Source: Azolla caroliniana
Lineage: Eukaryota > Plantae > Polypodiophyta
DNA length: 64,000 nt
NCBI GenBank assembly: GCA_043228905.1
Contig: JBHGNT010000020.1
Coordinates: 496,001 to 560,000 of the forward strand
Direction: 5' to 3'
A program made the translations under genes and the position numbers. Shown here piece by piece: positions 803 through 42,746 of the stretch (position 1 is the first letter of the stretch; each line of letters starts with the position of its first letter). The notes below the pieces were generated by a model. It was given only the letters and a program-made list of their open reading frames with translations. It had not been told where the DNA came from and did not search any database.

Positions 803-2757
803 ATGTCCCCCGACACAACGGCCAGTGTAGCGACCAAACCAAACTCGATCGCAACGGAAACAAGAGAGTGTCGTGACCTAGCAAGAATTGGCCTTACTGG
901 AAAAGTGATGGAGCGGTTACATCAATCCATTGTTGGATTGTGTGTCTCCAACCAACATAGCCCCAACACAATCGGATGTCGGGGGTTTGCGATGAGGTAG
1001 AACGTGAGTTCCTCCTGGTGTGCCTTGACTTAAAGTACCAATGGGATAGTGGCTTCGGTAACCGCCCCTGAAGAGAGAAGTCGGTTGTCGATTGCTTCAA
1101 CGGATATGGGTTGTGATGTGTGGAAGGTGGGGATATTATGTGCATGGACAAACAATTTATCGATAAAGCAAGTAGATGCTCCGGAGTCAAGCAAGGCATG
1201 AGAATTTATTGAAGCCGAACCAAAACAAAGACTTACTTGCAAAGAAAACCCTCCTAATGGCGAAATGGACTTGTAGGAGCATGGAGAAGGTGAGTAATGG
1301 GAAGTGTCCAGCGGCATGGCTCCTACTGCAGCCGGACTTGGTCATTTTCCTGTTGTCGAGGAACCTCCGCAAGACGTGCACGATAGAATTGGTGCCGCAG
1401 GCCCCGCATCGGGCAATGGCGGATGACATGGCCGGGGTTGCCACAATAGAGACAGAGTCTATTGTTCCGACGATGTTGGCGTTGGGCTTCAGTTAGTGGT
1501 TGGAACCGAGCATGGTCGATCTCCATCGGGGTATGGAAATCGACCTCCGTCATGGTATGGTTATCATTGAGTGATGGTAAGGTTGGCTTGGGAGACAAGT
1601 AGAGCCTAACGATTGATGTGTTTCAGGAAGAAGCTTGAGACCCGCAAGTCCCCCGTTCTTCTTGACGAAATTCGAAGAGACGATTGTCACACTGAACATC
1701 TTGGGAGATTACTTGAGACAACGATGTGGGCTCTAAGAAGTTTAAGAGAAGGGTCTTGACATCGTTTCAGAGGCCACGACGGAAATGGTCGTATAGGGCT
1801 TGGTCATCCCAACTCACATTGCAGGCAATTTGACGGAACTTTGAGGCGTAGACCGAGGCTAGATGTGAGCTTTGTTGGAAAGAATAAAGCTTTGTGAGTG
1901 CCGTTCTTCGCCGGTCTGTCTCGCCAAATGTCGCTTCGAGCTCCACAATGAAAGCAGTGAAGTTTTCTAAGAGAGGAGATGACGTCTCGATCAAGGGTGC
2001 AAACCACACTTGCGCCGGCCCGGAGAGAAGCGTGCCGACAAGCCCAACACGAGAAAAGTCGCTAGCATACCGATGGGGCTGTAACCGGATGATAAGCCGA
2101 ATTTGGTTGATGAAGCCGCGAAGATATGCCCTCGTGTTGTTGAATTTGTCCAGTAGGTTGATGGTTGGTTCGAGGACATATGGATGGGAAGAGGACGTGC
2201 TCCAGCTAGGTGCCGATGGTGGTTGTGACTCGAGGGGTGGTGGATTTCTTGAAGTGCCGGATTGCAACTCTACGATTCCCGAAGGATTTCATTATCTAGC
2301 TGAAGTTGTTGCAAGGTTGTCATGATTTGGTTTAGGTTGTCGACGGAGCCGGAGATGGTAGCAAGAAGAGGGAAGGTGAACAAACTATCATGGACAAGTG
2401 AAATAGAGCAAAGCGAAGACAAGACTAGAACACAAGAGAGAGGAAAAGAACAAGACCTCAACTTATAGAATCCGTAACTAGTGTTGTTCACCTTGATTAG
2501 AATCAAGGTGCACCTGAGTATTTATACAAGAAGGTAGGGCTATGTAAGCCAGTTAGAAATAGAGTATGCATGAGGATGCATGCAGAATGCATGAGAATGT
2601 GTGCAAGCTAGAAACGTCCAATGTTCAATCTACACTACATGAAGTTGGATTTGATACAAGGATGCATATGTAACTCAATTGGTAGAGTTGCCCAATAGAG
2701 ACCATGAGGTTGATTGAGTTCAATCTTTATCTTCCTCCGTGGCATACGTCTATGACA
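803..2757 (-). mobile_element. Truncated Ty3/gypsy chromovirus (Tcn1/sushi-like): 5' LTR plus degenerate gag-protease
   Basis: Gag capsid-like ORF 1767-2267 (RGFINQIRL...LSGPAQVWF...FRRGL). CCHC knuckle CLYCGNPGHVIRHC in ORF 1323-1598. Protease ALLDSGASTCFID in ORF 1030-1317. Frameshifts present. LTR 2318-2757 bounded by TGTCAT...ATGACA, with TATA at 2519-2526 on the - strand. Confidence 0.8.
2664..2738 (+). pseudogene. tRNA-like A/B-box cassette inside LTR 2318-2757
   Basis: D-arm TAACTCAATTGGTAGAGTT (AACTC/GAGTT stem) at 2671-2689; B-box-like GAGTTCAATCT at 2716-2726; no acceptor stem. Confidence 0.6.
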
Positions 2758-3354
2758 GTCGGAGTGAGTGTAGCCTTCGACTTCAGTTGAGGTTGTCAAA
2801 CCAAAAGTCAGCTGCATACCTCTTAGGTACCTAAAGATGTGCTTGACGGCCTCCCAGTTGATAGGAATACACGCTCCCTAAGCACAACGCTCGGCCACAA
2901 CCGAGCCTAGGATCAAAACACAGAAAACGGGTAAGGTACGCACGACACAGTGAAGAGAAGAGTACACAGGATGTTAACGTTGTCGTGAAGATTTTCGGCA
3001 ATAGTGTGAAAATCCCATAAAACGTACAAAATCGAGTATGAATCATGTAATACAATAATTGTGAAGATAACATTTTTAATATCTAAGTACAAAATGATGG
3101 AGGTTTCGAATGCACTTTATTACACGAGAAATGGACAACTAAATGTCAAGATATGAGGGTATAAAGTTTGTGAAAAGAAAAGAGAAAAATTGTGAGATAT
3201 CCCACATAGGCACGACAAATACGGCTCTCATCATATATAAGGTGGAGCAAAAGATATTATCTTTGTGTCTATGTGTGGAACATAGAGAGTTTCAAGGTAA
3301 CTTGAACTTAGAGTGGAGGTGGCTAGCTACTCGAAAAGGGTTTTGGCCAACCAA

Positions 3355-3560
3355 AACCGGACCGGCGATGGAGCCGGTGATCCGACGGCATCCGACCGGT
3401 ATCCGGCGGCGGCGTCGGTATCCGGCGGCGGCACCGGTATCCGGCATTGGTATCCGGCGTCGACATCCGGCGGCGGCATCCGGCGGCGGCGTCGGCATCC
3501 GGCATCGGCGTCGGCATCCGGCGGCGGTATCCGGCGGCGGTATCCGGCGAACCGGCGACT
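3355..3560. repeat. GC-rich minisatellite (CCGGCGGCGG/TATCCGG motifs) within the solo LTR
   Basis: Directly visible low-complexity repeat; explains the spurious ORFs at 3143-3579. Confidence 0.85.
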
Positions 3561-3597
3561 AGGTAAAATAAATATATAAAAATATATACATATACAA

Positions 3598-3670
3598 GGA
3601 GGGCAAGTATGGATTCAAACCTTGCACCTCCAAGTTAGGAGTCAAATGGCTTACCATTAAGCCATAGTAT
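3598..3670 (-). pseudogene. tRNA-like cassette (Arg-CCT-like loop) inside solo LTR
   Basis: Minus strand reads TGGCTTAATGGTAAGCCA-TTTGACTCCTAACTTGGAGGTGCAA-GGTTTGAATCC: A-box hairpin, CT-CCT-AA loop, B-box, then T-rich runs. Confidence 0.65.
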
Positions 3671-4785
3671 TTAGTTAAAATTATATTTCTATCATTGTAC
3701 TTTTACATGTAAATTCTCATCCATGAGTGCTAAAATGAGTGACATGGTTAGCATGCACCACATGTAATACTTAAGCGCCAAATGGCAAACATGCAATTTA
3801 TGCATGTCTTGTACCCTCACATGCATCATATGCATGAGAGCATCTATAAAAGAGGGAAGGGGGAGGAGAAAAACACGGTTTTTTTTATGAAAATTAAGAA
3901 CAAGAAATTCGTTATCAAATCAATTGTGTAATCTCATCTTCTCTCTTTCCCAATCTATCTTAAGTGCTTTCTCGCCAAAGCTTGTATCGACTCTAAATCC
4001 TTCTGGTCCAGAACCCCGGCGGTTCCGCCTCACGATCCTCGCGTAGTGACGGATCTTCACGACAACGTGGAAAACCCAAACTAGGGAAAAACCACGGCAG
4101 CCCACAGACTGCAAACTATCACTATATCACAATGTACAATGGTAAAGCACCGAGGCAACGACCTTGAGCTTGTTATCTTCAACACAGGCGGCAACGACCT
4201 CTTCCTCTCTCTCTCTTTCTCTGTACACAGTTACGCGCTCAAATCTTGCACCAACAAGAATGACAACAACTCGATACTAAGTTTGCCCTAAGTCATATTT
4301 ATACTAATATGACTTTTCGGCTATTTACAAATATAGCCCCGATGAACTCTCAAAAACATATTTACGAATATGTCCCTTCATCCGGTGAGCACTCCTCACC
4401 GGGCCTGCATCATCCGGCGCTTGTCGGGCACACGTCATCCGGTTCTCACCGGGTCTTCACCATCCGGCTCTTGCCGAGTACTCGTCATCCGGTTCTCACT
4501 GGGTCTTCTGTTGCCGGGTACTCGTCATCCGGTTCTCACCGAGTCTTCCATAGCCAGGAACTCGTCATCCGGTTTCGGCCGAGGCCGAGTTTGCTCATCA
4601 GTACTGTTCTTCTCACTTCCCATCCGGAGGGACTTGTTTCCTAACAAACTCCCCCTTCACTCTGGCATGGGATGTCTTACTAGTCCGATCCGCTTCCGGC
4701 ATGCATCCAGCTTGTCGGGTATCAGTACTTTGGTCAGCATATCTGACCCATTCTCGGCCGTGTGGATCTTTGTCAGTGCGAACTC

Positions 4786-6201
4786 CTAGTCATCTACTCT
4801 TTCCCGTATCCAGTGATACCTTCGCTGGATATACTTCGTCCGGGAATGGTAGGCCGCATTCTTAGCAAGGTGGATGGCACTTTGACTGTCGTAATATAGC
4901 CGGTATTCATCTTGCCGGATACCGAGCTCTCCGATGAAGTCCTTCATCCATAATATTTCCTTGCCGGCTTCCATAGCCGCCATGTACTCCGCTTCCGTGG
5001 TTGACAACGCAACTGTCTTCTGCAGTCTCGACTGCCACGAAACAACTCCCCCTGCATATGTCATTACATACCTAGATGTAGACGGGCTGGTATCCACATC
5101 AGCCGACATGTCCGAATTGGTAAAACCGTCAAGTAGAGGTTTACCGGAGCCGAATCGGAGACACATGTTCGAAGTGCCCATCAAGTACCGGAGTATCCAT
5201 TTGACCGCGTTCCAGTGCTCCTTGCCGGGATTGCTCAAAAATCGGCTCACTACTCCGACTGCGTATCCTATATCCGATCGGGTACACACCATTGCGTACA
5301 TCAAGCTCCCGACGGCAGAGGCATATGGAACCTTCATCATATCAGCCTTCTCTGCTTTCTTCTTCGGGCTTTGCTTACCGGATAATCTGCAGTTTGTCGG
5401 GAGTGTCAATCCGACCGGTTTCGCTTCTAACATGTTGAACCCCTGAAGCACCTTTGTCATGTACTTCTCCTGTGACAGCCACAATTGCTTCGTTGGCCGG
5501 TTCCGGATAATATGCATCCCCTCAGCCCAAAACTTCTTGGGTAATTTTGCATGCGCCAACATACTCCGGACCCTCTCCATTATGGTCCGGTTCATCCTCT
5601 CGGCCAGCCCGTTTAGTTCAGGCTTCTTGGGCACGGTAAATTCGAGCCGGATTCCCTTTGAGCAACAGTACTCCTCGAACTGCCCCCGGTAATCTCCTCC
5701 GTTATCTGCTCGAACCGCCTTCAGCTTCCGGCCGGTTTCCCTTTCCACTCTCGCGCGGAGTTCTTTGAAGATGGATAGCACCTGATCCTTCGTCTTCAAC
5801 GGTGTGGCCCACAACTTCCGGCTGTGGTCATCTATGAAGGTCACGAAGTACTGTGATCTTGCATGTGACTTCGTGTCCACTTGACATACATCAATATGCA
5901 CCAACTCCAGTGGTGCATGACGTCTTATCGGTGGCCTCGATCGGGGGGAGGTCCGGTTTTGTTTACCGGCCAGACAATCAGTGCACTTCTCCAAGTGCAC
6001 GTTCTTCACTGGAATGAGGTTGTCGTCTGCAAGCCTCTTCATCCCCTTCTCGCTCATGTGACAAAGCCTCTTGTGCCACAGCTCACCGGTAGTGTTAGAT
6101 GCCACGTTCACTTCCTCCGGACATAACCGGGATTTCATCAGGTACAACGTGTTGACCTTCCGGGCCCGAGCCACAATCAGGCTCCCTTTGCTGAATTTCA
6201 T
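4786..6201 (-). pseudogene. Copia A pol remnant: GAG-pre-integrase/integrase fused in frame to RT C-terminus and RNaseH
   Basis: LWHKRLCH..CTDC, FIDD, ADNGG, NGLAERMNRT, then KFWAEG joined directly to MHIIRNR..WLSQEKY; no YVDD core. Confidence 0.9.
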
Positions 6202-9200
6202 AACACCGTTCCGGATGCTACCCGTGTAGCCTTCATCATCTAGCCGACCGGTTGATATCAGGTTCAGACGAACCTCCGGAACGTGTCAGACATCCTTCGG
6301 CAGCAGATTGCATCTGGTTGGTGTTGTCAACCACACGTCTCCTATGCTGACAATCCGGCATGTACCTTCATTCCCCATCCGGACACAACCATGATCACCG
6401 GTTGAGTAGGATGAGAAGCATTTCCGGTCCGCGGTAAGGTGGAACGACGCTCCGGAGTCGACCACCCAGGTCATCTCGTCGCCGGCAAGGTTCAACTCAC
6501 TCTCCTCAGTGATGAGCATCAACTCTTCTTCACTTGCCGCGATTACAGTCGTTCCCTTCCGGTCCGGCCCGGCCCCCTCCGGTCTTTACCGTTCCCGTCC
6601 GGTGTCCGCTTCGAATCGGTACCGTCGGTTTGCTTGTCTTTTTGGAAATGCCAACAGTTCTTCTAGAAGTGTCCCGGCTTGCCGCAATAGAAGCAAGTAG
6701 GCCTCCCCCTTGACTTTGACCGTGTCCCCGACTTTTCCCGGTTCTGGGGACTACGGTTCCTTTGTCTTCCGCGTTCCGATTCGGTAAGGAGCGCTTTGGA
6801 GTCGTAGCTCGTATCCTTATCTTTCCGACGCGCCTCCTCAACTAGCAAGCTCGACTTCACTCTTGCTAGGGATAACCGTTTCCCTTCCGGCCCGGCGTTG
6901 CCCAAAGTGACAACCAACGTCTCCTAGCTATCTGGGAGGGAACCGAGCAGGAGTAGCGCTAGTACCTCATCGGCGAGAGGTACTTCCAATGATGTTGCCT
7001 TGTGGATCAGCCCCTGGAAGGCATTCATGTGCTCCGCCATGCTGGAGCCATCTTGGTACCGGAGTCTTACTAGCTTCCGAAATACCGAAACCTGATTAAC
7101 AACATTCTTGTTTTGAAACATAATGTTGATCTTATCCCAGAGCTCATGAGCCTTGCTCTCTTCATTGAAGTTGTTGTATAGGCTCATGTCGATGAAGCAC
7201 CGTATGTAGGCCGTTGTCTTCATGTGCATCACCTCCCATATCGTGGCGTCGATTTTGTCCGGTCTCTTGTCCCCGAACTGAACGGGTAGCCAAAGATCTT
7301 TAACCACGAGCATGTCCCTCATCTTCGACTTCCACATGGAATAGTTGGAGCCAGTGAGCTTGAACATGCCTCCCAATGATTCGTCCATTTTCTGTGTCGT
7401 TTCGCCCTGATACCAGTTTGACAGGAATACACGCTCCCTAAGCACAACGCTCGGCCACAACCGAGCCTAGGATCAAAACACAGAAAACAGGTAAGGTACG
7501 CATGACACAGTGAAGAGAAGAGTACACAGGATGTTAACGTGGAAAACCCAAACTAGGGAAAAACCACGGCAGCCCACAGACTGCAAACTATCACTATATC
7601 ACAATGTACAATGGTAAAGCACCGAGGCAACGACCTTGAGCTTGTTATCTTCGACACAGGCGGCGGTTACAACAGAGGCAACGACCTCTTCCTCTCTCTC
7701 TCTTTCTCTGTACACAGTTACGCGCTCAAATCTTGCACCAACAAGAATGACAACAACTCGATACTAAGTTTGCCCTAAGTCATATTTATACTAATATGAC
7801 TTTTCGGCTATTTACAAATATAGCCCCGATGAACTCTCAAAAACATATTTACGAATATGTCCCTTCATCCGGTGAGCACTCCTCACCGGGCATGCATCAT
7901 CCGGCGCCTGTCGGGCACACGTCATCCGGTTCTCATCGGGTCTTCCGTTGCCAGGTACTCCACATCTGGTTCTCACTGGGTCTTCACCATCCGGCTCTTG
8001 TCGGGTACTTGTCATCTGGTTCTCACCGGGTCTTCCGTTGTTGGGTACTCGTCATTCGGTTCTCACCGGGTCTTCCATAGCCGGGAACTCGTCACCCGGT
8101 TTCGACCGAGGCCGAGTTTGCTCATCAGTACTTTTCTTCTCCCTTCCCATCCGGAGGGACCTGTTTCCTAACACCAGTGCTTCCGTCCTTCCAGATTTGA
8201 CATGTACCGGCTGACCACCCCTATGGCATAGTCTAGGTCGGGTCGGGTCGTCACCATTGCGTACATGATACTTCTTATGACCGATGCGTAGGGCATCTTT
8301 CCGTTAAGCTCTCTCTCCTTGTCTGTTGAAGGAGAGTCTGTTCGATAGTCAGAATCGGTGTGGTGTCGGTTTCACATTCTCCATGTTGAAGCGGTTCAAC
8401 ACTTTGCGAATATAGCTTTCCGATCTCTGCCTGATTGCTCCCTGCAATGAGAATGTCGTTGACATATAGGATCAAATAGATCCTAGACTCGTTGGCCAAT
8501 TGCTGAACATACATACATGGGTCTGAGTAAGATTTGTGATATCCAAGCTGCCTGATGTAGGAGTCAAACTTCTAGTACCACATCCTCAACGCTTGTTTCA
8601 AGCCATAAAGGTTTTTCTTTAGTTGACATACGAGGTGACTTTTCTCCCCCGTTGCCGTGAAGTCTAGCGTTTGAGACATGTAAATGTCTTCTTCCAGATC
8701 TCCGTGTACATTGTCTTTACAGCTAGCTGCTCAAGCTCTAGGTCTTTTGTCGCCACAACTCCTAGTAGGAGTCGGAGGGTGGTCATCTTGACTATGGGTG
8801 AGAATAGCTCGTCGTAGTCAACCTCATGTTCTTGTTTGAACCCTTTCGCGAAAAGCCAAGCTTTGTACTTGGGTTTCTCTGAGTCAAATGCATATTTGTA
8901 TCAAAAAACCCATTTGCAAGGTAGTGGCTTTCTTCTAGCTGGTAGTTTGACCAACTTCCATGTGTTGTTCTCTTTGATCGAGTCCATTTCAGATTTCATG
9001 GCTTGTGGCCATGTGTCGGCATCCGGTGTGACCATAGCTTCGTTGTATGTGCTTGGTTCGCTTGCATCGGTGTACTTTACATAGTCGAGGCCCGGTTGAT
9101 AAAACTCTGTTGGCCTTCGAGCTCGTCCAGTTCTCTTGGGTGCCGAAATGAGTGGTTCGGATCCTTCAATCGTCTCTGTTGGTCAATCAGCATTTGTTGA

Positions 9201-9822
9201 GCCACTTGTGTCAGGAGTCTTGTTGGTTGACCCACCCCCATGTTGGGATTTCGGCGGTGTTATGATGTTCTCCCTTGGGTACTCGGTCGACTCAGATAGT
9301 TTTTCTCTTGAGTCATATTCGGTATTTCAGTCAGTTGGACGAGTCTGTCTCTTTTGACTCTGTCATTTCCGACTCTAGTCGATTTTACTTTGTTTTTGAT
9401 GAGTTTGTCTTCGAGTTTCACTCTTGGACCTCCTACCGATTCGGAGTCGGCAGGTATGTTGTTGGCTTGCTCAAGTTCGACTTTATGTCGAATTGCCGAT
9501 TCAGCTTGGTGGGACAGTCCTTCTACGACATCTCTGTCGGGATCGAAGGATACCTTTTTACCAACTATTTTCTGTTGATTCTGTTAAGAGAAAATAGAGT
9601 CTTCATTGAAGACTACGTCACTGGATCAGTTTCCAGTTCTCCGGGTCCCATAGCCTATAGCCAAAGTCCTCGTTGGTTCCATAACCTAGAAATATGCACT
9701 TCGTTACATGGGGCGCCGACTTGGTCCTTTTCTCCCTGGGCATGAATGTGTAGGCTTCGCATCCGAATATATGGAGCCTATCATAGGTCAGCTATTTGCC
9801 TGACCATAGTGCCTGTGACACT

Positions 9823-10298
9823 TAACAATCGACAACGGTTCGGTTTGAAACCGAACCACGAAACCGCGGTTTCAACAATTTGGTTCAGGTTGGGGTTTTT
9901 TAAAACGGTTCTGTTCAGTTTCGGTTCGGATTAAATAGTCAAAAACCGTGGTTTAACGGTTTTTTATTTTTTATTTATTTTTATTATTATTAAAAATTTT
10001 AAAAATTTTAAAAATTTTAAAAATTGTTTTTAAACAATCTTTTCATTTTTAGACCTTATTCTCACATTTTAGGAACATCTTAAAAAAAAAAAAAAAAAAT
10101 TAAAATGAAATATTATAAATTTTAAAAAATTAAAAGTTTGACCTATATTGAAAACCGAAACCGAACCATGAAACCGTGGTTTTTACGGTTTAATGGTTTA
10201 ATGGTTTGAAAAATGTTTAACGGTTTTGCGGTTTGGTTCAGGTTTCAAAAAAATTTAACTGTTTGGACCCTCTCAAACCAAACCGTTGCCGATTGTTA
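9823..10298. mobile_element. hAT-type MITE
   Basis: TIRs TAACAATCGACAACGGTT / AACCGTTGCCGATTGTTA; 8-bp TSD GTGACACT / GTGGCACT; many subterminal AAACCG/CGGTTT motifs; AT-rich core. Confidence 0.85.
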
Positions 10299-11241: not shown

Positions 11242-11480
11242 CCTCTTTTGAGGGATGAATTTCAACATTGTCTTTGAAGACTTTTTATTTAGGAGGAAAT
11301 AGTTACTTAGACCTTTATCCGATGTGGGGTTTAATACAATACCAATGCTAGAAGAATCAACCTCTTTTGAGGGATGAATTTCAACATTATATTTGAAGAC
11401 TTTTTATTAGGAGGAAATAATTAGTTATAACTTCAACCAAGATGGTGTTTAATATGACACCAATGCTAGAAGAATCACCT
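11242..11480. repeat. Tandem duplication of ~119 bp
   Basis: CCTCTTTTGAGGGATGAATTTCAACATT...CCAATGCTAGAAGAATCA occurs at 11242 and 11361. Confidence 0.85.
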
Positions 11481-11638
11481 ATTTAAGTTGGATTAGGAGG
11501 AGAAAGTAAATTGATTTAAAATCAATGTATTGGAATGTGGGTTGAAGGAGTTATTGTCCTTACTTTGAGGTATTTTCTTCCAACCAGTAACACCATTTTA
11601 AGGTTGATTATACAAGAAAGGCCAAAAAAACTTTCAAC

Positions 11639-12948: not shown

Positions 12949-13839
12949 ATGGAAACTAGAATGTTCACTACTCAAACCATTTCCATGAGATCCACAATTT
13001 TATTACTAGCCATTACATGGTTTGCCCTTTCCATAAAAAACACAAAGGCCTCACAATATACTGTGGGGGAGTCCATTGGATGGGGAGTTGGAAATAACTT
13101 AGAGAAGTGGGCAAATCAATACACATTCTACGTGGGTGATGAGCTTTGTAAGTCTTTCCTCTCTATAGTTTCTATAGTTTAAGGAAAAAGATCAATGCTC
13201 TTACATTGTTACATTTCTTATGTAAATAATGACACGTTCATATGTACACACTTTTCGTTTATGGAAATGTTATGCTGATAAATATGTGTTGTAGATTTTC
13301 CCTATTCATCGGGACAACATAGTGTGCTATTGGTGCCAGAAGAAGATTACAAGAGTTGCAATATTGGTAACCCGATAGCATCAGACCACGGTGCTGGAAA
13401 CATGGTCATAACACTCGTAAGCTCAGAAACATATTACTTCATTTGTGGTGTTCCAGGACATTGCGAACAAGGCCTTCGTCTTGCGGTTCCCGTAAAACCA
13501 TGGAATGAACCAAGCAATAACCCAACAATACTACCACCACCACCTCCACATGAAGTAACAACACCTATCTATAGTGCACCACCTACTCTAACACCACCAA
13601 CACCTATTTATAGTGCACCACCTACTCTAACACCACCAACACCTATATCATCAACACAAACACCACCTTCTTATAGCCCACCACCTCAATTGTCATCCTC
13701 AACTAAAAGCCCATCATATTATAGTAATAACCCGACTTTCCATCCTAACTCAGCCATGGCATCACAATCAATGAGCATCACTGCACATCTTACAATCATT
13801 GCATTTACCTTTGCATGCGCTCTATTCATCATCTCCTAA
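12949..13839 (+). CDS. Phytocyanin (uclacyanin/stellacyanin-like blue copper protein) with signal peptide, Pro/Thr/Ser-rich domain and probable GPI signal; exons 12949-13147 and 13295-13839
   Basis: YTVGESIGW..WANQYTFYVGDEL|YFPYSSGQHSV..YKSC..YFICGVPGHCEQGLRLAV. The GT-AG intron 13148-13294 keeps frame. Repeated TPIYSAPPTLTPP; hydrophobic C-terminus; TATAAATA at ~12847. Confidence 0.93.
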
Positions 13840-20710: not shown

Positions 20711-21818
20711 ACCTCTCTTGTTATGCATGAATTACCTTATATGATCAAGATGTAATTAATAAGTCAATGATATCCATCCTCGCTAGGTTTTCATTGCATA
20801 CTTCACATATCTTCATATTTGGGTGATGATGCCATGATGCTAAGTTGTATCAATAATTGGCTCTATCAAAACATATCCAATCATGGGCTCTATTTAGCGT
20901 CAATAATTAGATCCACCACTCGCGTATTATTCTGTTTTTGATTAATGGGGGGTCATTCTGTTTTTGTTAGAAGCTACCATTAATATTATGTTTATAGGCT
21001 CAAGATTACTGAATTAATCAATGTGGCATGATATATATATATATTACAATTGCCTCGATACCATCTTTGCAATTAGAGTATTCTCATCATTAGATTTTGT
21101 GTGAATTTTTTTCAAGTGACAACGAAACCACAAGAGAGAAAATCATCTCTAACGTGTCCACAATTATTATTTGTGACTACCACAATTGGCCAAAACATTA
21201 TGGCAGTAGACACTTCTTAGAAGCACAATTGCTATGCATTTCAATGTCCTTAAAATCTTTGGATTCATCAATGCTTCCTACATAAAATCATGACTGAGAA
21301 CTGGAACCTTAACCTCTAAGATCCTAATCCCTTTTTAATAATTATGTTGTTGATCTTACCATCTGCTTTACGGATTGATTCTTTCAACATGTATTGATTG
21401 GATTTATTTTGCTGAGTAGTATATTGGCTAATTTTTGTTCATGAAGATGAGTCCTTAATCTACTTAGGTAGGTTTTTATGAAAGTCTTTGCAGAGTAGCT
21501 TTCATTAAGAGATTATTAGCAAAATTGGATTCTTCAGTGTAGAGAGGAGATTGTTGGCATCATTTTCATTCAGCAAATTGGGTTTTTATTTTCCTATTCA
21601 GCATTGCGGAGGTATGGTAACAAATGGGTTCTTTATGCGTATCACATGCATGATCTTGGAAACCTCGGCGTCGTCCACTTTTGCTCCTACATCCAGACCA
21701 TGAAAATCCAGAAACAAATACTCTCCTATGATGTGCATGGTTCAATTTGGTAGATCAGCATTCCATTTTCTTGAAGTATTAGTCCAAATCCCCGCCATTT
21801 CGATCCAAACATTACACT

Positions 21819-30672: not shown

Positions 30673-30674
30673 GC

Positions 30675-30716
<42 letters not shown>

Positions 30717-31540: not shown

Positions 31541-34500
31541 TGTCTATAGACTATGGCCATGACTTGAGAGAACATGGGGCCATGGCATTGCATTACAGCA
31601 GGCAGGCAACGATCCTTCTATCAAGGGATTGTATTTTCATGTCTCCAACGATCCTTCTATCAAGGGATTGTATTTTCATGTCTCCTGGATGCATGAATGT
31701 CGAGTTGTGTGTGTATGCATGGTGTTCAAGTCTTTGTGACGAGGACCTGTCTTCATCCCCGAACCAACATGATCTCTCGTATGTGTTTAAGTTTTGTCCA
31801 CAAGCCTAGGTGACACTCCCCCCCCCCCCCCCCCCAATGTTCTGTGAGATCGGAGCCTAAGGATCACATGGAAACGAATTTCTTGTGGAGTTTGTATGTG
31901 TGATTCATCACTCTCGAAATAATAGATAAAGGGCAAAACGTTTATCCATTATATGCTCAATATTGTTGTCATGGTTGGTGTACCCTATGTTTGTAGTGTT
32001 CTTATGAACCCTCATGAGAAAAAAGCATGATGCCTTTTGTTCTCTTCTTTAAGAGGAATATTATGGATAAAGTGGGTTTTTTTACCTAAGACCACACTTT
32101 GACAAAGCAAAAGAAGTGAAAGATGCATTCGAGAACTAAACAAGTAGGATATGAGGCAAAGGCTTAGGCTTAGGCTAGAACAATATATATACATATACAT
32201 ATTTAGACAAAGAGCATTTGAAAATAAAAAGAACAACAAATAAAAGGAAGATCTCAAAGTGAGAGAATAAGAGGAACCTATGTAGTCTATATAACCAGGA
32301 GTTCATTGGGGTAGTTATAATACTTTTATTTTACTCCTTATATTTCTACCATTGGACAACACAATGTTATAACTTATACTTGTGCTTCTAAATGGTGGTT
32401 GGTATCTTTTGGATGTCCTTGTATTCTCCTACATACGAGTGCATGTCCCACACACGCACATGCATCCATGGTGTACATTTGTTTTGGTGAATACATTCAG
32501 AAAGGTAGGTTTCAACACGTGAATATTTCATTTAGGAACTATGAGATGGGCAATGGCAAACTTAATGTGCTGGTTCGGTCATGTCAAACATACATACATA
32601 CCATGTGTGAGAATTTGAAGTGTTGCAAAAGTTTGATGTTATCGGACAAACTGCTTTATGTGAGGAAAATACAAAACACATCAAGATAGGTAGGCTCCGA
32701 CATGCAAACTTTTTCATTTAGGAACTATGGCATGGGAAATGGCAAACTTGATGTGTTGGTTTGGCCGTGTTAAAGTTACATACCATGTATGAGCAATTTA
32801 TTGTTGTAGAAGTTTGATATTATCGGACAACTTGCTTTATACAAGTAAAGTACGTTGGAGATTAGGGTAAAAGCAAACCGCCTCATATTGACAAGGACAT
32901 TTTGTAGGACAAAAACCCTTGAAAACTACATATGGCTAAAATATTAGCTCCAATGGATGGAGCTTGCAAACATATTTTTTGTCACATAATAAGCCTTACG
33001 TATAACTTGCTCTATATTTTGCACACAAGCATGCAACATTCGCTAAACATTTCCCCTTACTAATCAATGTTTCTTTACTAATGGTTTCGTGTTTGTTCTA
33101 ACCAAGTTACAACAAAACTAGTTCCATGAAGTTAATTGACATTCCTTGACTCTTAAAGTATGTCCTATCACTTTATTTTGATGCTCACTTAAATTCCTTC
33201 AAACTTAATTATAATACCGCAAATGATCAAAACAACACATAATTGGACAAAAACATGATACTAAAAGGGAGCATTATATTTCAAACAAAAAGATGGTGAT
33301 GGACCATGGTGATGATAAATGAAGGATTTCTTTGTGATATGCATGTTGCATAATTTATTTAAAATATGTTCAGATGTTGACCGAAAATAAAGAAAAACCG
33401 AATAACATTGTTTGAGAAATGTTGTGATTCGTGTGGTCAAGATAAAGCCCAATCTAGAATTGGCTAATGTGTTGTCAATTAGTGTGTTGACTAGTAAATG
33501 TGCCACAAATAATTTGTTTATATCCATGGGAATCGAAAAGAGATGATGATTATGCGATTATAGACCATAACACAAGCGTGTACAAATGAAGTGCCATTAC
33601 TTTAAACAAATTATGAATAAATTGTTATTGATATATTTGTGAACCATCGCCATGCTACTAGCGTTTTCTCGGGGTGTCTCACTCCATCTCTATATGGTAC
33701 ATGTTGATATGACATGTGTTTGCATGCATGTGGGTGCACGATTCAATTTCATTTTCATGCAATCAATGGTAATAAAGTGTGCCGTGATTTAGTATATATT
33801 CTTTGAAAGAGAATCTTTAGTCACACAATTATTATAGAAGAAAATGTGGTCATTGTTCTTTTGTCTTACTTCCATGCAACTTAGCAAAGCCATTACGGAG
33901 CTTGTGTGGTCACATAAAATGGACAATGCATTCAAGATAACTTCTAAACTAGAATTAACATATTTCTATATCATACATCGTTTCTTGGCAAGCATTCCAC
34001 TTTTTCGCAAAATCTCATAATCAAGGCATTAATATCCATACAAGAAGTGATAGAAATCATTACAACAAGCAATCTAATGTAATTTGTGTTGCAATCTAAT
34101 TGAGGGCTCTCCAATTAAATAGTTTGATTAAATGTGTGCGTGAGTGGAAAAAATCTATGTATGAACATTTCATGATCTATCATATTTGTAAATGCATTCA
34201 CACCACATTCACGTTCCAAGCACTCACCTCTATATTTATAATAAGCCATACTTCGTCATTCAAGAGAACACAAACTTTCTAACTTTATAGGAACAACCCA
34301 ATAACTCTTTGGATTCTATGGACACAACGGTGTAGACATGTCTTCTCCAACCAAACCATTCATCAAGTAATGTTAATGCAAGAGATATGGAGTGAAGTTG
34401 TAGCCATTCTAAAGAGCCAATACAATGACCTCACGGGCAGATCTGTTGGAGTTGAAAGACAACGATTAGTGTTCATCCAACAATGGTCGTCCTCTCCCTT

Positions 34501-36489
34501 TCTTGAGTCAATGGGCATCCACATAATATGTAACTATCGCGTCCCTACAAGGATTTGTATATAACACTCTCATATGTTAAATTGTATAGGAACAACCCAT
34601 CAAAGTTCATGTCATATGTTAAATTTTGGAAAAACAACTTTATAGGAACAACCCGTCAAAGTTCATCTCTATCAAAGATGTCTAAACCACACATGTAATT
34701 TGATATACTTTATATTGATTGCATATAATCGAAAGCTTCTTGATCAATTACATTTTGTAAATGCCTTCGCCAATTCATACTCCACGCGTTCATCTCTATT
34801 TAGGTAAAAACCACACCTTGTCATCCATGAGAGAAGAAACAAATGTTAGCACAACCTATCAAACTTTCTAGAAACAACACATTTTAAGTTAATCTTCATT
34901 CAAGACCACAAAGTCTTCAACATCCCTCAATTTGGTTAATATTATCAATGCAACAATATTGCTCATTGATGTTGATAAATGTGACTGCCCTTCGACCTTG
35001 ATTGAAGGTCACCAAACCATCAACAACTCCGTCAATTTTAACTACTTAATAATATTGCACAATCATGATGTTAGTAATCTAAAACATGATTAAGGGATGC
35101 TTAGAATAAGAAATTACACAAACGACAATTGTTCAAGCATTAAGCATTGAAGAGTTTCACGCTTACAAATTGCCATAGCAAGATGATGTCACAAGTCCTT
35201 TCATCATGTAGTGCATTTATATACATGTAGAGCACATGTTTTACAAGGCAAAGTAGAGAAAATAAATAATCATACCCAACAAGGAACACAATTTCTTCCA
35301 AACGTGTGGTAAACAAAGAGAAGGGCAATGGGTCAAATGAAGGCAACGTGAATGGATGGATAGGATAATTGACATTTTGCTCACATCAAGTGTCGGGCCC
35401 CTAAGAAGATAAGAACGTTGCATGCTAAAAGAAGACCTACTATTTTATTTGCATGAGGAGCTCTAGAAGCTTATAAAAAGGACAAGAGAGCTCATTGTTG
35501 TTGGATCAAAATTTGGAGACAAGGAAAAAGTACCATTGAAACCTAAACGAACATAATATTGCGAACAAAGAGCCCGTGTTCAAGACCGACGACAACAAAA
35601 AGCAATGAAGTTGTCACGTGTGTGTCCTCTAAGGCGAAATTCGAGGATCTCCTCCTAAAGCTTCTTCCTTATCATCTACTCTTCTATCTTATTTAATTAT
35701 TTCCATAAAAGTCACTTCATCCAAAAGGGTTAAGAGTCATCTCATTGTATATGGTTTGGTCAAGAACTTTTATATAGTATGTTCTTTGACATCTTTACAT
35801 AGACTATTGAACAAGGATTTCACTAGAATTTTTGGCTCTAAAATCCAAGATGAGGTTGTAATGTTTCACAAAATTTTGTCCAAAAGAGATATTAAGGAAA
35901 CTTGGCTGAAGGGCTCACCATCAAAATTCAAAGAGGTTGTCACAAGGTGTTGGACTAAAAGTCCCACTCCACCCAATTTGTATTCCTAGTGTGAACACAC
36001 TGTCTTAGTTAGGGCTTAGTTACCCTAACTATAAAAGTGTGTAAATGAGTTCTGGCGGGATTTATAATATGATTGTCTCTTAAGCTCTAACAATGTAATT
36101 GTTATCTTCTTTCTCTTTGTCTCTCTCTCTACATACTCTTCATCAAAGATTGAACAATGCACTATCACATCCTCACTTGTTATCTGTTTGCTTGATTCAC
36201 ACCAAAGATCCTAGTTGCTATTTGTTGAGAATCAAGCTCAACCTACTGCAACGTGTGAACACACCATTTGAGAATCTATGAGCACTCAAAGGTCAAGAGT
36301 CACATCACTCTCTACACATTAACTATGTGTCATAGCATCATATTCTAAGACACATAACTAATGAGTTCCATATCCCCATGACTAATGAGTCTTCACATTC
36401 CTCAAGGTTCTAGAGAGAGAGTGGACATTGTATTGAGTTAATGAAGAGAGAGGGTGACCTTATATAAAGCACCATCCTCCTTCTTGTTG

Positions 36490-36834
36490 CAGTTCTCGGT
36501 GAGGGACGCATGATCGCTCACCTCCGTTCGTGTTCAATTCTCGGTGAGGGCCACATGGTCGCTCACGTCCGTTTGTGTTCTAGTTCTCGATCAAGGCCGC
36601 ATGGTCGCTCATGCCCGTTCGTGTTCAGTTCTTGGTGAGGGTCGCATGGTCGCTCATGCCCATTTGTGTTTTCGATGAGGACCGCACATGGTCGCTCACG
36701 TTCCAGTTCCCGATGAGGGCCACGCATCGTCGCTCACGTCCGTTCGTGTTCTAGGTCTCGGTGAGGGTTGCATGGTCTCTCACGCCCGTTTGTGTTCAGT
36801 TCTTGATGAGGGCCACATGGTCGCTCACGCCCAT
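36490..36834. repeat. ~44-bp tandem array (GTTCTCGGTGAGGGCCACATGGTCGCTCACGCCCGTTCGTGTTCA), probably LTR-internal; resumes at 41573-41745
   Basis: About 8 degenerate units before the 36835-41572 insertion and about 3 after it. Confidence 0.8.
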
Positions 36835-36892
36835 TGTCGTGAAGGATTTGCTTCACGTATAAAAATAAACTTCAATATTGTATTAAGTAACA

Positions 36893-36960
36893 TTTGAGAG
36901 ACTTGAACCCATACCCTCACACACCAAGGACAAAGAATATACCATTAGGATAAGTTACTT
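36893..36960 (-). pseudogene. Degenerate tRNA-like cassette in LTR 36835-37608
   Basis: Minus strand TATCCTAATGGTA ... GGGTTCAAGTCTC with tRNA-like spacing; same position relative to TATA as in the related LTR 2981-4064. Confidence 0.5.
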
Positions 36961-37654
36961 TCTATAGTTATATTTTTATCATCATACTTATGACATGTGT
37001 ATCTTCATACATTAGAGCTTAGATGAGCATGATGGCTATCATGCATCACATGTAAAGCATGTGCGCCAAATGGCGATCATGCATCACATGCACCACCATA
37101 TCATCATATGCATGAGAGAACCTATAAAGAGAGGCAAGGAATTAAGGGATGAATCAAAGGGGAAAACAGGTTAATCAATCAATGAAGAGAAAGTTAGAGA
37201 AATAAGATAATCAAAGAAACAAATAATAAGTTAGCTTGTTAGTGAAGAGGCTTGTGTTTTCAAGTTGGAGTCAAGGGTTCAAATCAAGAGTTGGTAGAGA
37301 AAGGGTTCATCTTGCTATCAAGCATTGTAAAGTTGGTAAAATCTTGTATTCGTAATATACATCATGTTCATATCATATATTTTAATTCCTTAAATCATAC
37401 TTTGTCTCTATCTTGCTTCTTGAATCATACATTGTCTCTATCCTTTATCTATACTAGTCTCTCTCTCACACACATTGCTTTAAACTCTTATTCTTTTTAT
37501 CCTTAATCTTCCTAACATTTGTGTGCAAGCCTTATAAAAGTTCCTTCAACTGGACCCCTTAACCTTAGTCCCTGTGACTTCGCTGCACGAACCACAACTA
37601 CCTCGACACATTTGGTGAACCCGACGTGAAAGCGGCGACAAGGAGAAATGGAGG

Positions 37655-38676
37655 AGCACAACGGATACTCCGGTATTTGAAGGGCACTTCAAATATGTGT
37701 CTCCGATTCGGCTCCGGAAAACCTCAACTGGACGGTTTCACCGATTTGGACATGTCGGCTGATGTGGATACTAGCCGGTCTACATCCGGGTATGTAATGA
37801 CATATGCAGGGGGAGCTGTTTCATGGCAGTCAAGGCTGCAGAAGACGGTTGCATTGTCAACCACGGAGGCGGAGTACATGGCAGCTGTGAAAGCCGGCAA
37901 GGAAATTTTATGGATGAAGGACTTCATCGGAGAGCTCGGTATCCGGCAAGAGGAATATCGACTCTATTGCGACAGTCAAAGTGCCATCCACCTTGCTAAG
38001 AATGCGGCCTACCATTCCCGGACGAAGCATATCCAACGGAGGTATCACTGGATCCGGGAAAGAGTAGATGACCAGGAGTTCGGACTGACGAAAATCCACA
38101 CGGCCGAGAACGGGTCAGATATGCTGACCAAAGTGCTGACACCCGACAAGCTGGACGCATGCCGGAAGAGGATCAGACTGGTAAGACACCCCATGCCGGA
38201 GTGAAGGGGGAGTTTGTTGGGAAATAGGTCCCTCCGGATGGGAAGGGAGAAGCACAGTGCCGATGAACAAACTCGGTCGAGGCCGATAGGACGAGGCCGA
38301 AACCGGATGAGGAGCACCCGGCTACGGAGAGCCGGATGGTGCAGGCCCGGTATGAACCGGATGAGGAGCACCCGGCTACAGAGAGCCGGATGGTGCAGGC
38401 CCGGTATGAACCGGATGAGGAGTACCCGGTTACGGAGAGCCGGATGGTGCAGGCCCGATGTGAACCGGATGAGGAGTACCCGGCTACGGAGAGCCGGATG
38501 GTGCAGAACCGGTGAGAACTGGAGGAAGAGACATATTCGTAAATATGTTTCTGAGAGCCCATCGAGGCTATATTTGTAAATAGCCGAAAAGTCATATTAG
38601 TATAAATATGACTTAGGGCAAACTTTTAGTTGTTGTTGTCATTTTCTATTTTGCACGAGATTAGTGTGCGTAACTG

Positions 38677-38741
<65 letters not shown>

Positions 38742-39013
38742 GTCGTTGCCTCTGTTGTAACCACCGCCTGTGGCGAAGATTTGTGAGCACGAGGTCGGTG
38801 CCTCAGTGAACTCACTGTTGTATATTCCTACATAGTGACAGTTTGCAGCTTGTGGGTTGCCGTGGTTTTTTCCCCTAGTTTGGGGTTTTTCCACGTAAAC
38901 CTCCTGTGTATTCTCTCCTTCTTTGTGTCGCGTTTTATTTCCCGTTTTCTGTGTATCATTCTAAGCTCGGTTGTGGCCGAGCGTTGCGCATAAGGAACGT
39001 TGGGTTCCCGTCA
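37655..39013 (+). mobile_element. 3' fragment of a copia A-family element (RNaseH + PPT + LTR ~38216-39013)
   Basis: RILRYLKGTSNMCLRFG..SWQSRLQKTVALSTTEAEY, nearly identical to 4786-5200. PPT GAAGGGGGAG. LTR TGTTGG...CCGTCA with ~58-bp internal repeats and (GA)n. Confidence 0.9.
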
Positions 39014-39265
39014 AGATATGTAATGAGAGCTAAAGACTGGTGTTGATTCGAATTGATTTGAGAATACATGTATGCCCTTATTTATAGGTTCCTATAGAAT
39101 AGCTTAGGGATTTCTAGAATGTTCTAGAATGTTCTAGACTTAGAATGCTCTAGCTTATTGTTCATATAACAATAAGCTATCTTAATGGTTGAGGTTTTCA
39201 AGTATGGATTACAAGGTTTGAGGTTCAAGTCCGGGTGACGCCATAATGGTCATGTGTTCATGACA
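39014..39265 (-). mobile_element. Partial LTR (same family as 42113-42583) carrying a tRNA-like cassette at 39171-39243 on +
   Basis: Ends CATGACA; TTCTAGAA repeats; TATA on - at ~39079-39086; GCTATCTTAATGGTT ... GGTTCAAGTCCGGGTGACGCCA. Confidence 0.7.
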
Positions 39266-41785
39266 TCAACGATATGTCAAGGATGACAAGGAGAGCTTTT
39301 ATGGAGTAGGTAGAGTCTGATAAACATTTAAGTGTTTTGGAAGTGTTAAAAGAATTTTCAGAAAGATTTGAGCAATTAAATGTTAGAGATAGAAATATAA
39401 TTATAATGCTAGATAAAGTAATATTGTTTCTACAAGCTACTAATATTAAAGACAGGAAGGACTTGGGAATGCTTCTGGAAGATCAAAATAGTCCGAGTGG
39501 ACTTACCGAAGACTGGGAGGAGGTGAAAAGGGCTTGCGCCCATTTCTGTAAAAGAAAGTTATGGTTTATGGAGTTGCCGGAGAGGAAGGGAGATGAAACG
39601 GGAAATGACTCGGGAGAGAAGAAAATAGAAGATTCACTCTTGCATGAGTTGGTGAAAGGCATGAAAGACTTGTCGATCAAAGTGACGAAGCTAGAATCGG
39701 GACAAAGCTCGACTTTATCAAGGCAAGGAGGTGGAATGGTCCGAAGGTGTATGTGGTGTGATAGTGTCAACCACCAAAAGAAAGACTGTCAAGAACATAG
39801 GGATTCTCTTAATCATGATAAAATCTACTATCAAGATGGAAAGATTCACTCGACAAAGACTCAACAACCAATCTAGCTCAACTTTGGGAAAGGTGGAATG
39901 AAAAAGCTAATGGAAGATGCTGAGAGAGAAACGACTCAAGCGATACCATCCGTGACAACCTTAGGGTTGCGTGTAGAAGACTCATATGGTGGATCTGACT
40001 TTTGGCAGGGTGTGATGGAGTATGCAAGAAAAGGGAAGGTTCAAGTGAATGAATTAAAAAGTGTGGGTGATGAAATATGGAACTTCACTGGATGGAATGA
40101 TCAAGTAGACACACTATCAGCATTTGCCCAAGTGAATGTACAAGATGCACTAGTGGAAGAGAAGCAAAAGAGAGTTGAGGAGGCTGATTCGGCAAAGAAA
40201 CATGAGACACAAGAACAACTTCAGAGAAGAGAGATGGAAAAGGATGCCCCTGAGTCAAAAGAAGCTGATAAAGTCAAAGGGAAGACAGACCCAACTTTTA
40301 ATCTTGCTTCGGACACAAAAGCCACGACGGATATAAAACATGTCATGGAAGTAGTTACAAGAGAGTGTGCAACAACAAGTCTCCAAGATTTGGATCATGA
40401 ATCCATCAATGTTGCAGGTGTAAAGAAGATAAATGATGTTCAGATTCATGAAGGGGATAGGAGTCATCATACAAAGAACCATGAGGCTCAAGCAACAACG
40501 GAGGCGCCTACAAAAATTACGGAGCAACAGATTCCTTGTATTGCTTTGATGGATCATGGATCAGAAATTAACATGATGTCGTCGGAATGTTGTGCTCAAG
40601 GAAGGTGGCCAATCGATAAGAATCATGGTTCGAGGAAAAGAGTTACAACAGAGATGATGGAGGATCTATTCGGAGCATGTCCCAGTGTGAAACCAACAAT
40701 GGGAGATGTGTCGGTGGATGAAAATTACTATGTGCAAGATGGATCAACCTACCCCGTCATCCTTGGTCAACCATACAATAGCGTAGTAAGTATGGAAACA
40801 AAGGATGGTGAACCATACATCAATGTAGTAAGGATGGAAACAACTGTGATTAATGATGATTCAGCTTTCGTGAGGATCAAGAGTCAGGATGGAAGGAAGA
40901 GGGGCCATATCTTAACCATGATGCCTAACCATAGCTTAGATAAGTTACTTTCTATAGTTATATTTTTATGTGTATCTTCATACATTAGAGCTTAGATGAG
41001 CATGATGGCTATCATGCATCACATGTAAAGCATGTGCGCCAAATGGTGATCATGCATCACATGCACCACCATATCATCATATGCATGAGAGAACCTATAA
41101 AGAGAGGCAAGGAATTAAGGGATGAATCAAAGGGGAAAACAGGGTAATGAAGAGAAAGTTAGAGAAATAAGATAATCAAAGAAACAAATAATAAGTTAGC
41201 TTGTTGGTGAAGAGGCTTGTGTTTCCAAGTTGGAGTCAAGGGTTCGAGTCAAGAGTCGGTAGAGAAAGGGTTCATCTTACTATCAAGCATTGTAAAGTTG
41301 GTAAAATCTTGTATTCATAATATACATCATGTTCATATCATATACTTTAATTCCTTAAATCATACTTTATCTCTATCTTGCTTCTTGAATCATACATTGT
41401 CTCTATCCTTTATCTATACTTGTCTCTCTCTCTCACACACATTACTTTAAACTCTTATTCTTTTTATCCTTAATCTTCCTAACATTTGTGTGCAAGCCTT
41501 ATAAAAGTTCCTTCAACTCCCCTTAACCTTAGTCCCTGTGACTTCGCCGCACGAACCACAACTACCTCGACACACCCGTTCAAGTTTTCGATGAGGGCCA
41601 CATATGGTCTCTTACTCCCATTCCCGCTCCAGTCTCTTCCAACTCGCGGTGAGGACTGACATGGTCTCTGATGCCCGTTGGTGTTAGTGTTTCCAGTGAG
41701 GACAACACATGGTTTCTCACACCCACCGCTTCCCGTTCACCCTTACACCGTGCTTTCGAAAAGGTGGCCATAAAGGGGAGGATAA

Positions 41786-42746
41786 TGTCACAGACATGAC
41801 AACAATTATGTCAAGATTTAAACTCTTGACCTCTTGTATTATAGTCAAGTGTTATATTTTAACCAACACATCCAAGTACATAATCGTGTTATGTATATCT
41901 TCATAGATTATGGATCACGTTCTAGAACTAGAAGGTTCTAGAGGGTTCTAGAATATTCTCTAAAATATTCTAATGCATGTACTTCAACTCACAGTATAAA
42001 TACTTGTAATGTCCTTCAACTCACAGTATAAATACTTGTAACTTCCTTGGTCCCTTTCAAGGAATTCAACACCAGTCATTGACAAATCAATCTAGTATTC
42101 TCGTTTCGCCTCTATCATGAATACATAAGCATCATGGCTTCATGGCTTCACTTGGGCTTGAACCCAAGACCTTATAATACATAATCAAGAACCTAACCAT
42201 TAAGATAGCATATGATCATATAAAAAATTAAAAGCTACTTCTTGTAATAGACTGACTATTGCAAATGTTCTGGAACATTCTAGAACATTCTAGAATATCC
42301 TAGAACATCTTAGAATATTCTAGGTCTAAAACATTCTAGAATATCCTAGAACTTCTTAGAATATTCTAGGTCTAGAACATTCTAGAACATTATAGAAATC
42401 ACTAGGCTATAGGAACCTATAAATATGGACATATAATTCTTCTCAAACCAATTCAAATCAAACTGTCAGAACCAAGAGAAAAGATAGAGTGGCGGAAGAA
42501 TGATGGAAAGAGATCACAAGAAGAGAAGAATGAAGTGATAAGAGGTGAAGCCATGAAGCCACGATGCTTATGTATTCATGACAACCTCAACTTTGTCTCC
42601 TTGATCTTTATTTCTATCTTCATGCCCTCATGTCGCTCACAACATCTAGAGTTCCTAGCCTCGCCACATCTAGCTCCACGTTCATCCATCGCTCGTACCT
42701 CATCATCTGTGCTCCGTCCTAGTCTACGCTTGGTGTGTCCATGACA
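41786..42746 (+). mobile_element. Gypsy-type LTR (probably a 3' LTR) with tRNA-like cassette at ~41808-41880 on -, interrupted by 42113-42583
   Basis: TGTCA...TGACA ends; purine tract AAAGGGGAGGA just upstream; duplicated GTATAAATA at ~41994 and ~42025; TTCTAGAA motifs. Confidence 0.7.
42113..42583 (+). mobile_element. Solo-LTR-like unit with 39-bp terminal inverted repeats and tRNA-like cassette (42143-42215, -)
   Basis: TIR match 37/39; 5-bp TSD GCCTC/ACCTC; TTCTAGAA array 42265-42390; CTATAAATA at ~42417. Confidence 0.85.

Follow-up and report, generated by a model that had tools for sequence, protein, structure and literature searches.

tRNA-like cassettes in the LTRs of an Azolla locus

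The 64,000-nucleotide stretch of Azolla caroliniana DNA considered here (contig JBHGNT010000020.1, positions 496,001 to 560,000; hereafter the window, numbered from its first letter) is rich in nested long terminal repeat (LTR) elements, and six of these LTRs contain a tRNA-like segment, here termed a cassette, in the U3 region upstream of the LTR promoter. All six cassettes lie inside LTRs and antisense to the LTR TATA box, with the A-box base T8 located 92-211 nt upstream of TATA, much as the initial annotation of this DNA had placed them (Table 1). That annotation assigned to every segment both an A box and a B box, the internal promoter elements of tRNA genes, and this is correct for five of them; in the segment at 41808 the A box has decayed. 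It also counted only the six antisense cassettes and overlooked two further ones, at 37225-37298 and 41190-41263, which have the sense orientation and lie behind the TATA box.

The tRNA likeness of the cassettes was assessed with a covariance model (CM) and with a matrix that scores an A box and a B box together (two-box score), both of which were built from 83 phage tRNAs to avoid circularity. A CM search of the window gives 13 matches with E≤10, the strongest four of which are all cassettes (41805-41870, E 7e-4; 2664-2734, E 0.04; 42143-42209, E 0.4; and 3586-3668, E 0.6), while those at 36893 and 39171 are absent from the matches at this cut-off. The two-box matrix places five of the six among the seven highest sites of the window, and five of the six each outscore 40 of 40 dinucleotide shuffles of their own LTR, in agreement with the expectation that the likeness would exceed that of shuffled LTRs. 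Cassette 5 fails the two-box score and yet is the sole match to the tRNA family RF00005 of Rfam. Shuffled windows contain on average 0.5 two-box sites with scores of at least 20 and reach a maximum of 25.6; since single high-scoring sites arise in this way, no one cassette is proof and the case rests on recurrence. With default settings ARAGORN reports no tRNA at the cassettes, its relaxed mode (-ps80) returns 42 matches and is uninformative, and an Rfam scan of 2500-3900 lists no tRNA. By the two-box score there is no cassette in the six copia LTR stretches of the window, as had been noted from the outset, and none in a partial TGTCG-ended LTR at 1-815.

Table 1. Cassettes and LTRs of the window (positions from the first letter of the window; PBS, primer-binding site; PPT, polypurine tract)
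Feature	Position	Strand	Details
Cassette 1, antisense	2664..2738	+	A box from 2671, weak B box 2717-2727; CM 14.0 bits; two-box 16.1; no T4 run within 173 nt
Cassette 2, antisense	3598..3671	-	A box from 3664, B box 3621-3611 with changed T-loop C; T5 run 28 nt beyond B box; CM 10.4 bits; two-box 24.6
Cassette 3, antisense	36861..36959	-	A box from 36952, B box 36909-36899; T5 terminator-like run at 36865-36861; two-box 19.5
Cassette 4, antisense	39171..39243	+	A box from 39178, B box 39222-39232; two-box 24.5
Cassette 5, antisense	41804..41872	-	decayed A box, best cloverleaf score; RF00005 25.5 bits (gathering score 29); CM 19.5 bits; two-box 2.4
Cassette 6, antisense	42143..42214	-	A box from 42207, B box 42164-42154; CM 10.9 bits; two-box 23.9
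Sense cassette, downstream of TATA	37225..37298	+	B box 37276-37286; two-box 12.4, reached by 3/40 shuffles
Sense cassette in 3' LTR	41190..41263	+	B box 41241-41251; two-box 20.9, reached by 0/40 shuffles
5' LTR, Tcn1-like Ty3/gypsy	2318..2757	-	TGTCA...CATGACA ends; gag next at 1770-2288
Solo LTR, Phygy-like	2981..4064	+	TGTCG...CGACA ends; 4-bp ACGT duplication; sits within copia LTR
5' LTR, Phygy-like element	36835..37608	+	PBS at 37613-37629
3' LTR of 36835 element	40939..41572	+	93% identical to 36949-37610; left end including antisense cassette deleted
TGTCA-type LTR, truncated	39015..39265	-	cut by copia LTR
TGTCA-type LTR	41786..42746	+	PPT-like tract before; interrupted by 42113 LTR
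Solo TGTCA-type LTR	42113..42583	+	5-bp duplication with one mismatch; ~40-bp terminal inverted repeat

Recurrence, box conservation and loss of the tRNA shape

Further copies were sought in metagenome contigs with a promoter motif located outside the cassette, which yielded 113 loci, of which 42 match window LTRs by BLAST (individual loci are cited by number, as in L207); the other 71, for which BLAST gave no match in the window, were set aside as not from the host. Among the 36 loci with at least 170 nt of upstream sequence, 29 contain an antisense cassette (score at least 12) and one reaches this score in the sense direction; 28 of the 29 antisense cassettes have T8 at a distance of 102-113 nt from the anchor motif. 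The seven loci without an antisense cassette are mostly truncations, insertions and internal deletions. The orientation of these loci is set independently by a PPT in eight, a PBS-like site in five and a sense gag open reading frame (ORF) in three; the spacing from A box to B box is identical in 33 of 35 units, and the best CM matches in the 42 loci are again the cassette units. The cassette is real and multi-copy. Independent insertions of short interspersed elements (SINEs) are ruled out, since 28 of 29 copies agree in position and have their flanks in common, and the original suggestion of a divergent tRNA-derived module that is fixed in U3 stands; the cassette was probably an old tRNA gene or the head of a SINE that became trapped in U3 and has since been duplicated along with each LTR.

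For the LTRs at 36835, 41786 and 42113, contigs of four runs (four organism labels, three studies) provide hundreds to thousands of records. Among the matches listed, the frequent differences in cassettes 3 and 6 lie outside the universal box positions (40 of 175 and 40 of 56 rows, respectively), and the A box of cassette 5 stays degenerate. The window copy of cassette 5 deviates from the tRNA T-loop at one position, at which 79-90% of the contig depth has the canonical base. Neither the TGTCA-type LTRs nor the LTR at 47629 match any of the 42 host loci by BLAST, and the TGTCA lineage therefore rests on its four window copies and the contig tables.

The boxes are more conserved than the DNA around them. 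When rows are first selected by homology outside the boxes alone, which leaves 32 of 39 (28 of them non-redundant), the ten universal box positions require 1.10 parsimony steps per site and the other cassette columns 2.45 (permutation P 0.004), and across 194 distant pairs the invariant box positions are 91% identical versus 35% for the DNA between the boxes. A test filtered by score (P 0.0006) is circular and is not relied on. We conclude that in the Phygy-like lineage (see below) the module is very probably the remnant of a Pol III (RNA polymerase III) promoter that is under selection, and we hold the same view of the TGTCA lineage with less confidence.

What has been kept is not a tRNA. In the Phygy-like units the fraction of acceptor pairs (0.36) is similar to that in slid controls, which means that the acceptor stem is absent, and the D and anticodon stems are not preserved either. 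A tRNA gene is ruled out by the missing acceptor stem, the ARAGORN result and an Rfam match below threshold. Runs of four T residues (T4), which would act as Pol III terminators, do not occur inside any of the 35 antisense units; among ten non-redundant units there are none versus 3.3 expected (P about 0.01). In the group related to the 36835 LTR all 15 units, tandem ones included, have a T4-5 run ~33 nt past the B box, and the same 15 units, again with the inner tandem ones, have an invariant 5-nt AT-rich block ~14-18 nt past the B box. In predicted folding, 15 of the 35 antisense units surpass their shuffles (z<-2), mostly by way of a hairpin of 10-11 bp around the B box in the group related to the 2981 LTR, a structure not found in tRNAs. 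This fold is not common to the groups, as the 36835-type units and all 18 sense units are mostly unstructured.

In four loci (L142, L160, L171 and L177) there are two complete antisense cassettes in tandem, 72-77% alike and each with boxes and a T-run, and in L228 a second antisense cassette is visible at the cut end. Behind TATA, a sense cassette is present in 16 of 34 loci as well as both LTRs of the 36835 element, and absent from the 2981-type group; its B-box core is nearly invariant (17 copies), its A box is weaker, and it has neither a fold nor a terminator. Because of this second, sense cassette the Pol II (RNA polymerase II) promoter is bracketed in some subfamilies. Read inward from the LTR end, the order is an outward-facing Pol III unit, then an enhancer, then TATA, followed in some subfamilies by another pair of boxes that also faces outward.

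The interval between the cassette and TATA contains either what we take to be RY repeats with an E2F-like site or what we take to be arrays of heat-shock elements. In the Phygy-like LTRs a conserved E2F-like site sits amid RY (CATGCA) repeats 40-90 nt before TATA (3775, 37063, 41036 and the 42 loci), and the first 60 nt upstream of this site are as conserved as the A box. Three TGTCA-type LTRs have nGAAnnTTCn arrays (39112-39134, 41946-41958, 42268-42295 and 42375-42387), and nine of the ten three-unit heat-shock-element matches in the window fall in these LTRs, which suggests that they may belong to heat-inducible elements.

LTR lineages and comparison with known systems

The cassettes occur in at least two LTR lineages, with TGTCG and TGTCA ends, and differ between them as the initial annotation had recognized, those of different LTR families in the window being 34-61% alike. 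The six are LTRs, as it also stated, with the reservations that the one given as 39014-39265 is truncated (39015-39265) and that the term gypsy is inferred for those at 41786, 42113 and 39015. The direction of the LTRs is given by the gag ORF for 2318-2757, by the PBS for 36835-37608 and by the PPT-like tract before 41786.

For the TGTCG-ended LTRs, 14 of 19 host junctions, those at a PPT or PBS set aside, have the form NCGN and four more are one CpG-decay step from it. One PBS, which we take to be a match to tRNA-Trp, recurs after the TGTCG LTR in the window element, L138, L144 and L167; the PBS pattern gave no matches in viral contigs. In L179 an integrase fragment beside the cassette-bearing LTR is 87-88% identical to full polyproteins with reverse transcriptase (RT), RNase H and integrase, and the TGTCG lineage thus includes coding elements. 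Relatives are present in liverworts and ferns, and neither a chromodomain nor an extra RNase H is listed for them. The Phygy elements described in the available portion of Neumann (2019; PMC6317226) have a 4-bp NCGN target duplication and a tRNA-Trp PBS. We therefore call the TGTCG-ended LTRs Phygy-like, an assignment made from junctions, PBS and homologs.

In the TGTCA lineage, no copy has an attached RT, and the LTR at 42113 has a 5-bp duplication. The element with the 2318-2757 LTR has a gag ORF (1770-2288) that matches the Pfam families Retrotrans_gag, DUF4939 and Ty3_capsid; a search with this gag fragment against PDB gave no matches. The element has no tRNA PBS, and the LTR pairs with its PBS region over at most 6 bp. 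For Tcn1 the same portion of Neumann (2019; PMC6317226) reports a 5-bp duplication, no tRNA PBS and overlapping gag and pro frames, and by its DUF4939/Ty3_capsid gag and the absence of a tRNA PBS the 2318-2757 element appears to fit Tcn1. The other three TGTCA LTRs (39015, 41786 and 42113) have no coding region and would belong here, and to gypsy at all, by resemblance. If these assignments hold, the cassette is present in both deep branches of the plant Ty3/gypsy elements. In PMC6317226 the descriptions of Phygy and Tcn1, as far as available, cover moss and club-moss and mention no tRNA-like LTR segment.

As precedent the initial annotation named Cassandra, but it missed a closer one, Helenus (PMC10886601), as well as the Pol III units in the LTRs of foamy viruses (PMC3993851). 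Helenus (TRIMp3) is set out in the sections of Kojima (2024; PMC10886601) used here as a non-autonomous terminal-repeat retrotransposon in miniature (TRIM) of 311-1263 bp whose LTR contains tRNA-derived sequence, with an origin by SINE insertion proposed. As in Helenus, the Azolla LTRs hold tRNA-derived sequence with conserved A and B boxes that is neither a functional tRNA nor a primer. Unlike in Helenus, a gag gene follows the cassette LTRs (window 1770-2288, L138, L155 and L179), which are thus parts of coding elements, and the U3 cassette is antisense with the Pol II TATA box kept. According to the same sections of PMC10886601, the tRNA part is in sense in the three complete LTRs compared, among them that of the sole plant family, from Selaginella; it is viewed as the promoter of the element RNA, and autonomous partners are not expected to share Helenus-type LTRs. 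Since two defining features fail, the non-autonomous TRIM form and the sense promoter, the fern cassettes are not Helenus.

The Cassandra TRIMs resemble the cassettes in placing a Pol III internal promoter from a small-RNA gene in plant LTRs, those of ferns included, and differ in that their promoter is derived from 5S RNA, is in sense, belongs to a non-autonomous element and drives the element transcript (as summarized in PMC10886601). The foamy-virus LTRs treated in the consulted part of Kincaid (2014; PMC3993851) likewise have Pol III units with A and B boxes, there with T-run terminators, within an autonomous retroelement that uses Pol II. Those units are microRNA-precursor hairpins with known products in animal retroviruses and are not tRNA-shaped, whereas the fern units are known from sequence and have no conserved fold. 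In yeast, the tRNA genes (tDNAs) that act as barriers and the ETC (extra TFIIIC) sites share with our proposal that Pol III complexes affect nearby chromatin and Pol II by a route other than the tRNA; they differ as host loci that are not the cargo of a mobile element, and are not shown in ferns (PMC2040200 and PMC4228148, as far as the accessible text goes).

A literature search that did not extend to Repbase or most subscription journals gave no report of coding plant LTR elements with tRNA-derived cassettes in antisense. Kojima remarks, in the text at hand, that tRNA-like parts occur in 'not a few' of the LTRs in Repbase and leaves those of long elements unanalysed, which suggests that such LTRs sit in Repbase without analysis (PMC10886601). 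The tandem double cassettes, and the second sense cassette behind TATA in some subfamilies, are new here.

A proposed boundary role, its alternatives and neighbouring sequence

We tentatively propose that the cassette is a tRNA-derived type-2 Pol III promoter at the outer edge of U3 that works as a portable chromatin boundary, a reading in line with the insulator idea of the initial annotation and one to which we give slightly less than an even chance. Factor binding, transcription and the boundary effect are what we infer: TFIIIC would bind the A and B boxes, TFIIIB would then be loaded on the AT-rich DNA that faces the enhancer, and the assembled complex would bar silent chromatin as well as read-through transcription from the LTR promoter; since the unit points outward, Pol III itself would be kept clear of the Pol II promoter. 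As the promoter signals are kept and the tRNA shape is lost, it would be the Pol III machinery on the DNA, and not a tRNA-like product, that matters. A boundary is favored because the promoter signals outlast the tRNA shape and because Pol III complexes act as barriers in yeast. In the passages that concern us, the tDNA barriers of fission yeast require TFIIIC and Pol III (PMC2040200), and the Pol III complexes of budding yeast stop Pol II read-through (PMC4228148).

Several observations weigh against such a role or against the selection that it presupposes. The parsimony test without the filter, which includes rearranged copies, is not significant (3.70 versus 4.55 steps, P 0.11), the corresponding test for the sense cassette is weak (P 0.09), and the 42 loci are non-independent, having been drawn from a small number of related samples. 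TFIIIC needs the T-loop C, and this base is T in seven of 32 copies, by five steps in the tree and many of them in the 2981 subfamily; the change is of the kind that CpG decay produces, although a sub-lineage may have spread carrying T. Cassette 5 has its decayed A box. T4 runs after the B box, found in 24 of 32 units versus 22.5 in base shuffles, show no excess overall, and none falls within the LTR for cassettes of the TGTCA type. The cassette is not universal, because L207 cleanly lacks it in an otherwise intact LTR end and the chromovirus LTR at ~47629-48062 has none by the two-box score. A complex on the 3' LTR would obstruct the Pol II transcript of the element itself. Finally, the fission-yeast barrier is independent of orientation, in so far as the cited portion describes it (PMC2040200), and the direction of the LTR cassette is fixed.

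The product rather than the complex could be what matters, in the form of an antisense Pol III RNA of ~90-110 nt that acts in trans as a small-RNA decoy, in copy-number control or as a guide. The boxes, the avoidance of internal T4 and the conserved T-run suit a transcribed unit, 15 of the 35 antisense units fold better than shuffles, with the B-box hairpin of the 2981-type group, and RNAs made by Pol III from the LTR of simian foamy virus (SFV) are lowered in expression by mutation of the A and B boxes (from the part of PMC3993851 used here). We nevertheless regard this as unlikely, as the sequence between the boxes drifts freely (35% identity), the hairpin is missing in most 36835-type units and two-sided changes in it were not seen by eye, and the TGTCA-type units have no nearby terminator. 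A cassette that tunes the Pol II promoter of its own LTR in cis, either by activation through a nucleosome-free patch formed by TFIIIB and TBP or by dampening outside stress or germ-line windows, would account for the fixed direction, for the constant spacing from the enhancer motif (28 of 29 copies at 102-113 nt) and for the RY/E2F-like or heat-shock elements in the enhancer between cassette and TATA, and depletion of TFIIIC in yeast de-represses adjacent genes (PMC4228148, in the excerpt relied on). The distance to TATA, however, varies by family (92-211 nt), and the outer tandem units are conserved too although they are 124-148 nt more distant, which makes tuning in cis quite unlikely in our view.

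It is improbable that the cassette is a neutral passenger, a functionless old tRNA or SINE relic that the LTR carries along. The T-loop C decay in seven of 32 copies, the unfiltered test (P 0.11) and a simple-repeat, tail-like stretch behind the cassette in the 2981 group are what such a relic would leave, but it would not be expected to give 91% box versus 35% inter-box identity across subfamilies, exact spacing in 33 of 35 units, or different cassettes at the same place and in the same direction in two deep lineages. Least probable, and by our estimate very improbable, is a landing pad for integrases that target Pol III or a cassette RNA that primes reverse transcription. Breaks near the A box in two of 39 copies (L220 and window 40939) would agree with a landing pad, yet insertions are nowhere stacked ahead of a cassette, either in the window or in the 42 loci, and for the Phygy-like elements the PBS is of the host-tRNA type and the preferred target is NCGN. 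The primer role raised by the initial annotation is not supported, given the ordinary tRNA PBS of the TGTCG elements, the missing acceptor stem and, in the 2318 LTR, a pairing of at most 6 bp with its PBS region.

The boundary reading can be extended to the statement that, on both deep branches, coding Ty3/gypsy elements of ferns took up the promoters of tRNA genes as insulators time and again, with the Pol II promoter bracketed and the outer cassette doubled in some subfamilies, which is possible although we consider it rather doubtful. If true, retrotransposons would possess a means of countering silencing in cis and would have spread Pol III boundary elements by the thousand over fern genomes; it would also bring a tDNA-type boundary function to plants and extend LTR Pol III promoters from TRIMs to coding elements. 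The question touches on how LTR elements retain a working promoter within silenced, nested transposon DNA, and a short module with base-level selection on known boxes is directly testable by point mutation. It would also be a caution that fern genomes contain many tRNA-like false positives.

Some features of the LTR elements stand apart from these questions. The chromovirus LTR at 47629-48062 has an antisense 11-mer like an A box ~45 nt upstream of TATA, with no B box at tRNA spacing. The unusually long ~40-bp terminal inverted repeat of 42113-42583 overlaps the 3' end of its tRNA-like cassette. Between the LTRs of the 36835-41572 element there is only a gag-protease-like region, and the homologous ORF of L160 runs directly into the PPT, such that the element is a probable non-autonomous gag-pro derivative; no clean target duplication is seen around it, and ~46-bp tandem repeats lie on both of its sides (36463-36835 and 41575-41740). 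In L155 a 536-codon open frame (L155:814-2421) directly precedes the PPT and 3' LTR of a cassette-bearing element, and both L155 and L179 have a second PBS-like site right after the LTR together with a tandem element structure.

The rest of the window includes a two-box site at 21738-21791 (score 20.5) that is not within any LTR and is due either to chance or to an old tRNA or SINE relic, and a nested inverted repeat at 59582-62370 with arms of up to ~1.1 kb that are 86-97% complementary, which is probably a foldback element. Host sequence is represented by an exon with a plastocyanin-like domain (13282-13839) and by an intron-less HPPK-DHPS gene (reading frame 53894-55387), whose best named matches are from Adiantum (69%) and Ceratopteris (68%), with other land plants at 52-59%.

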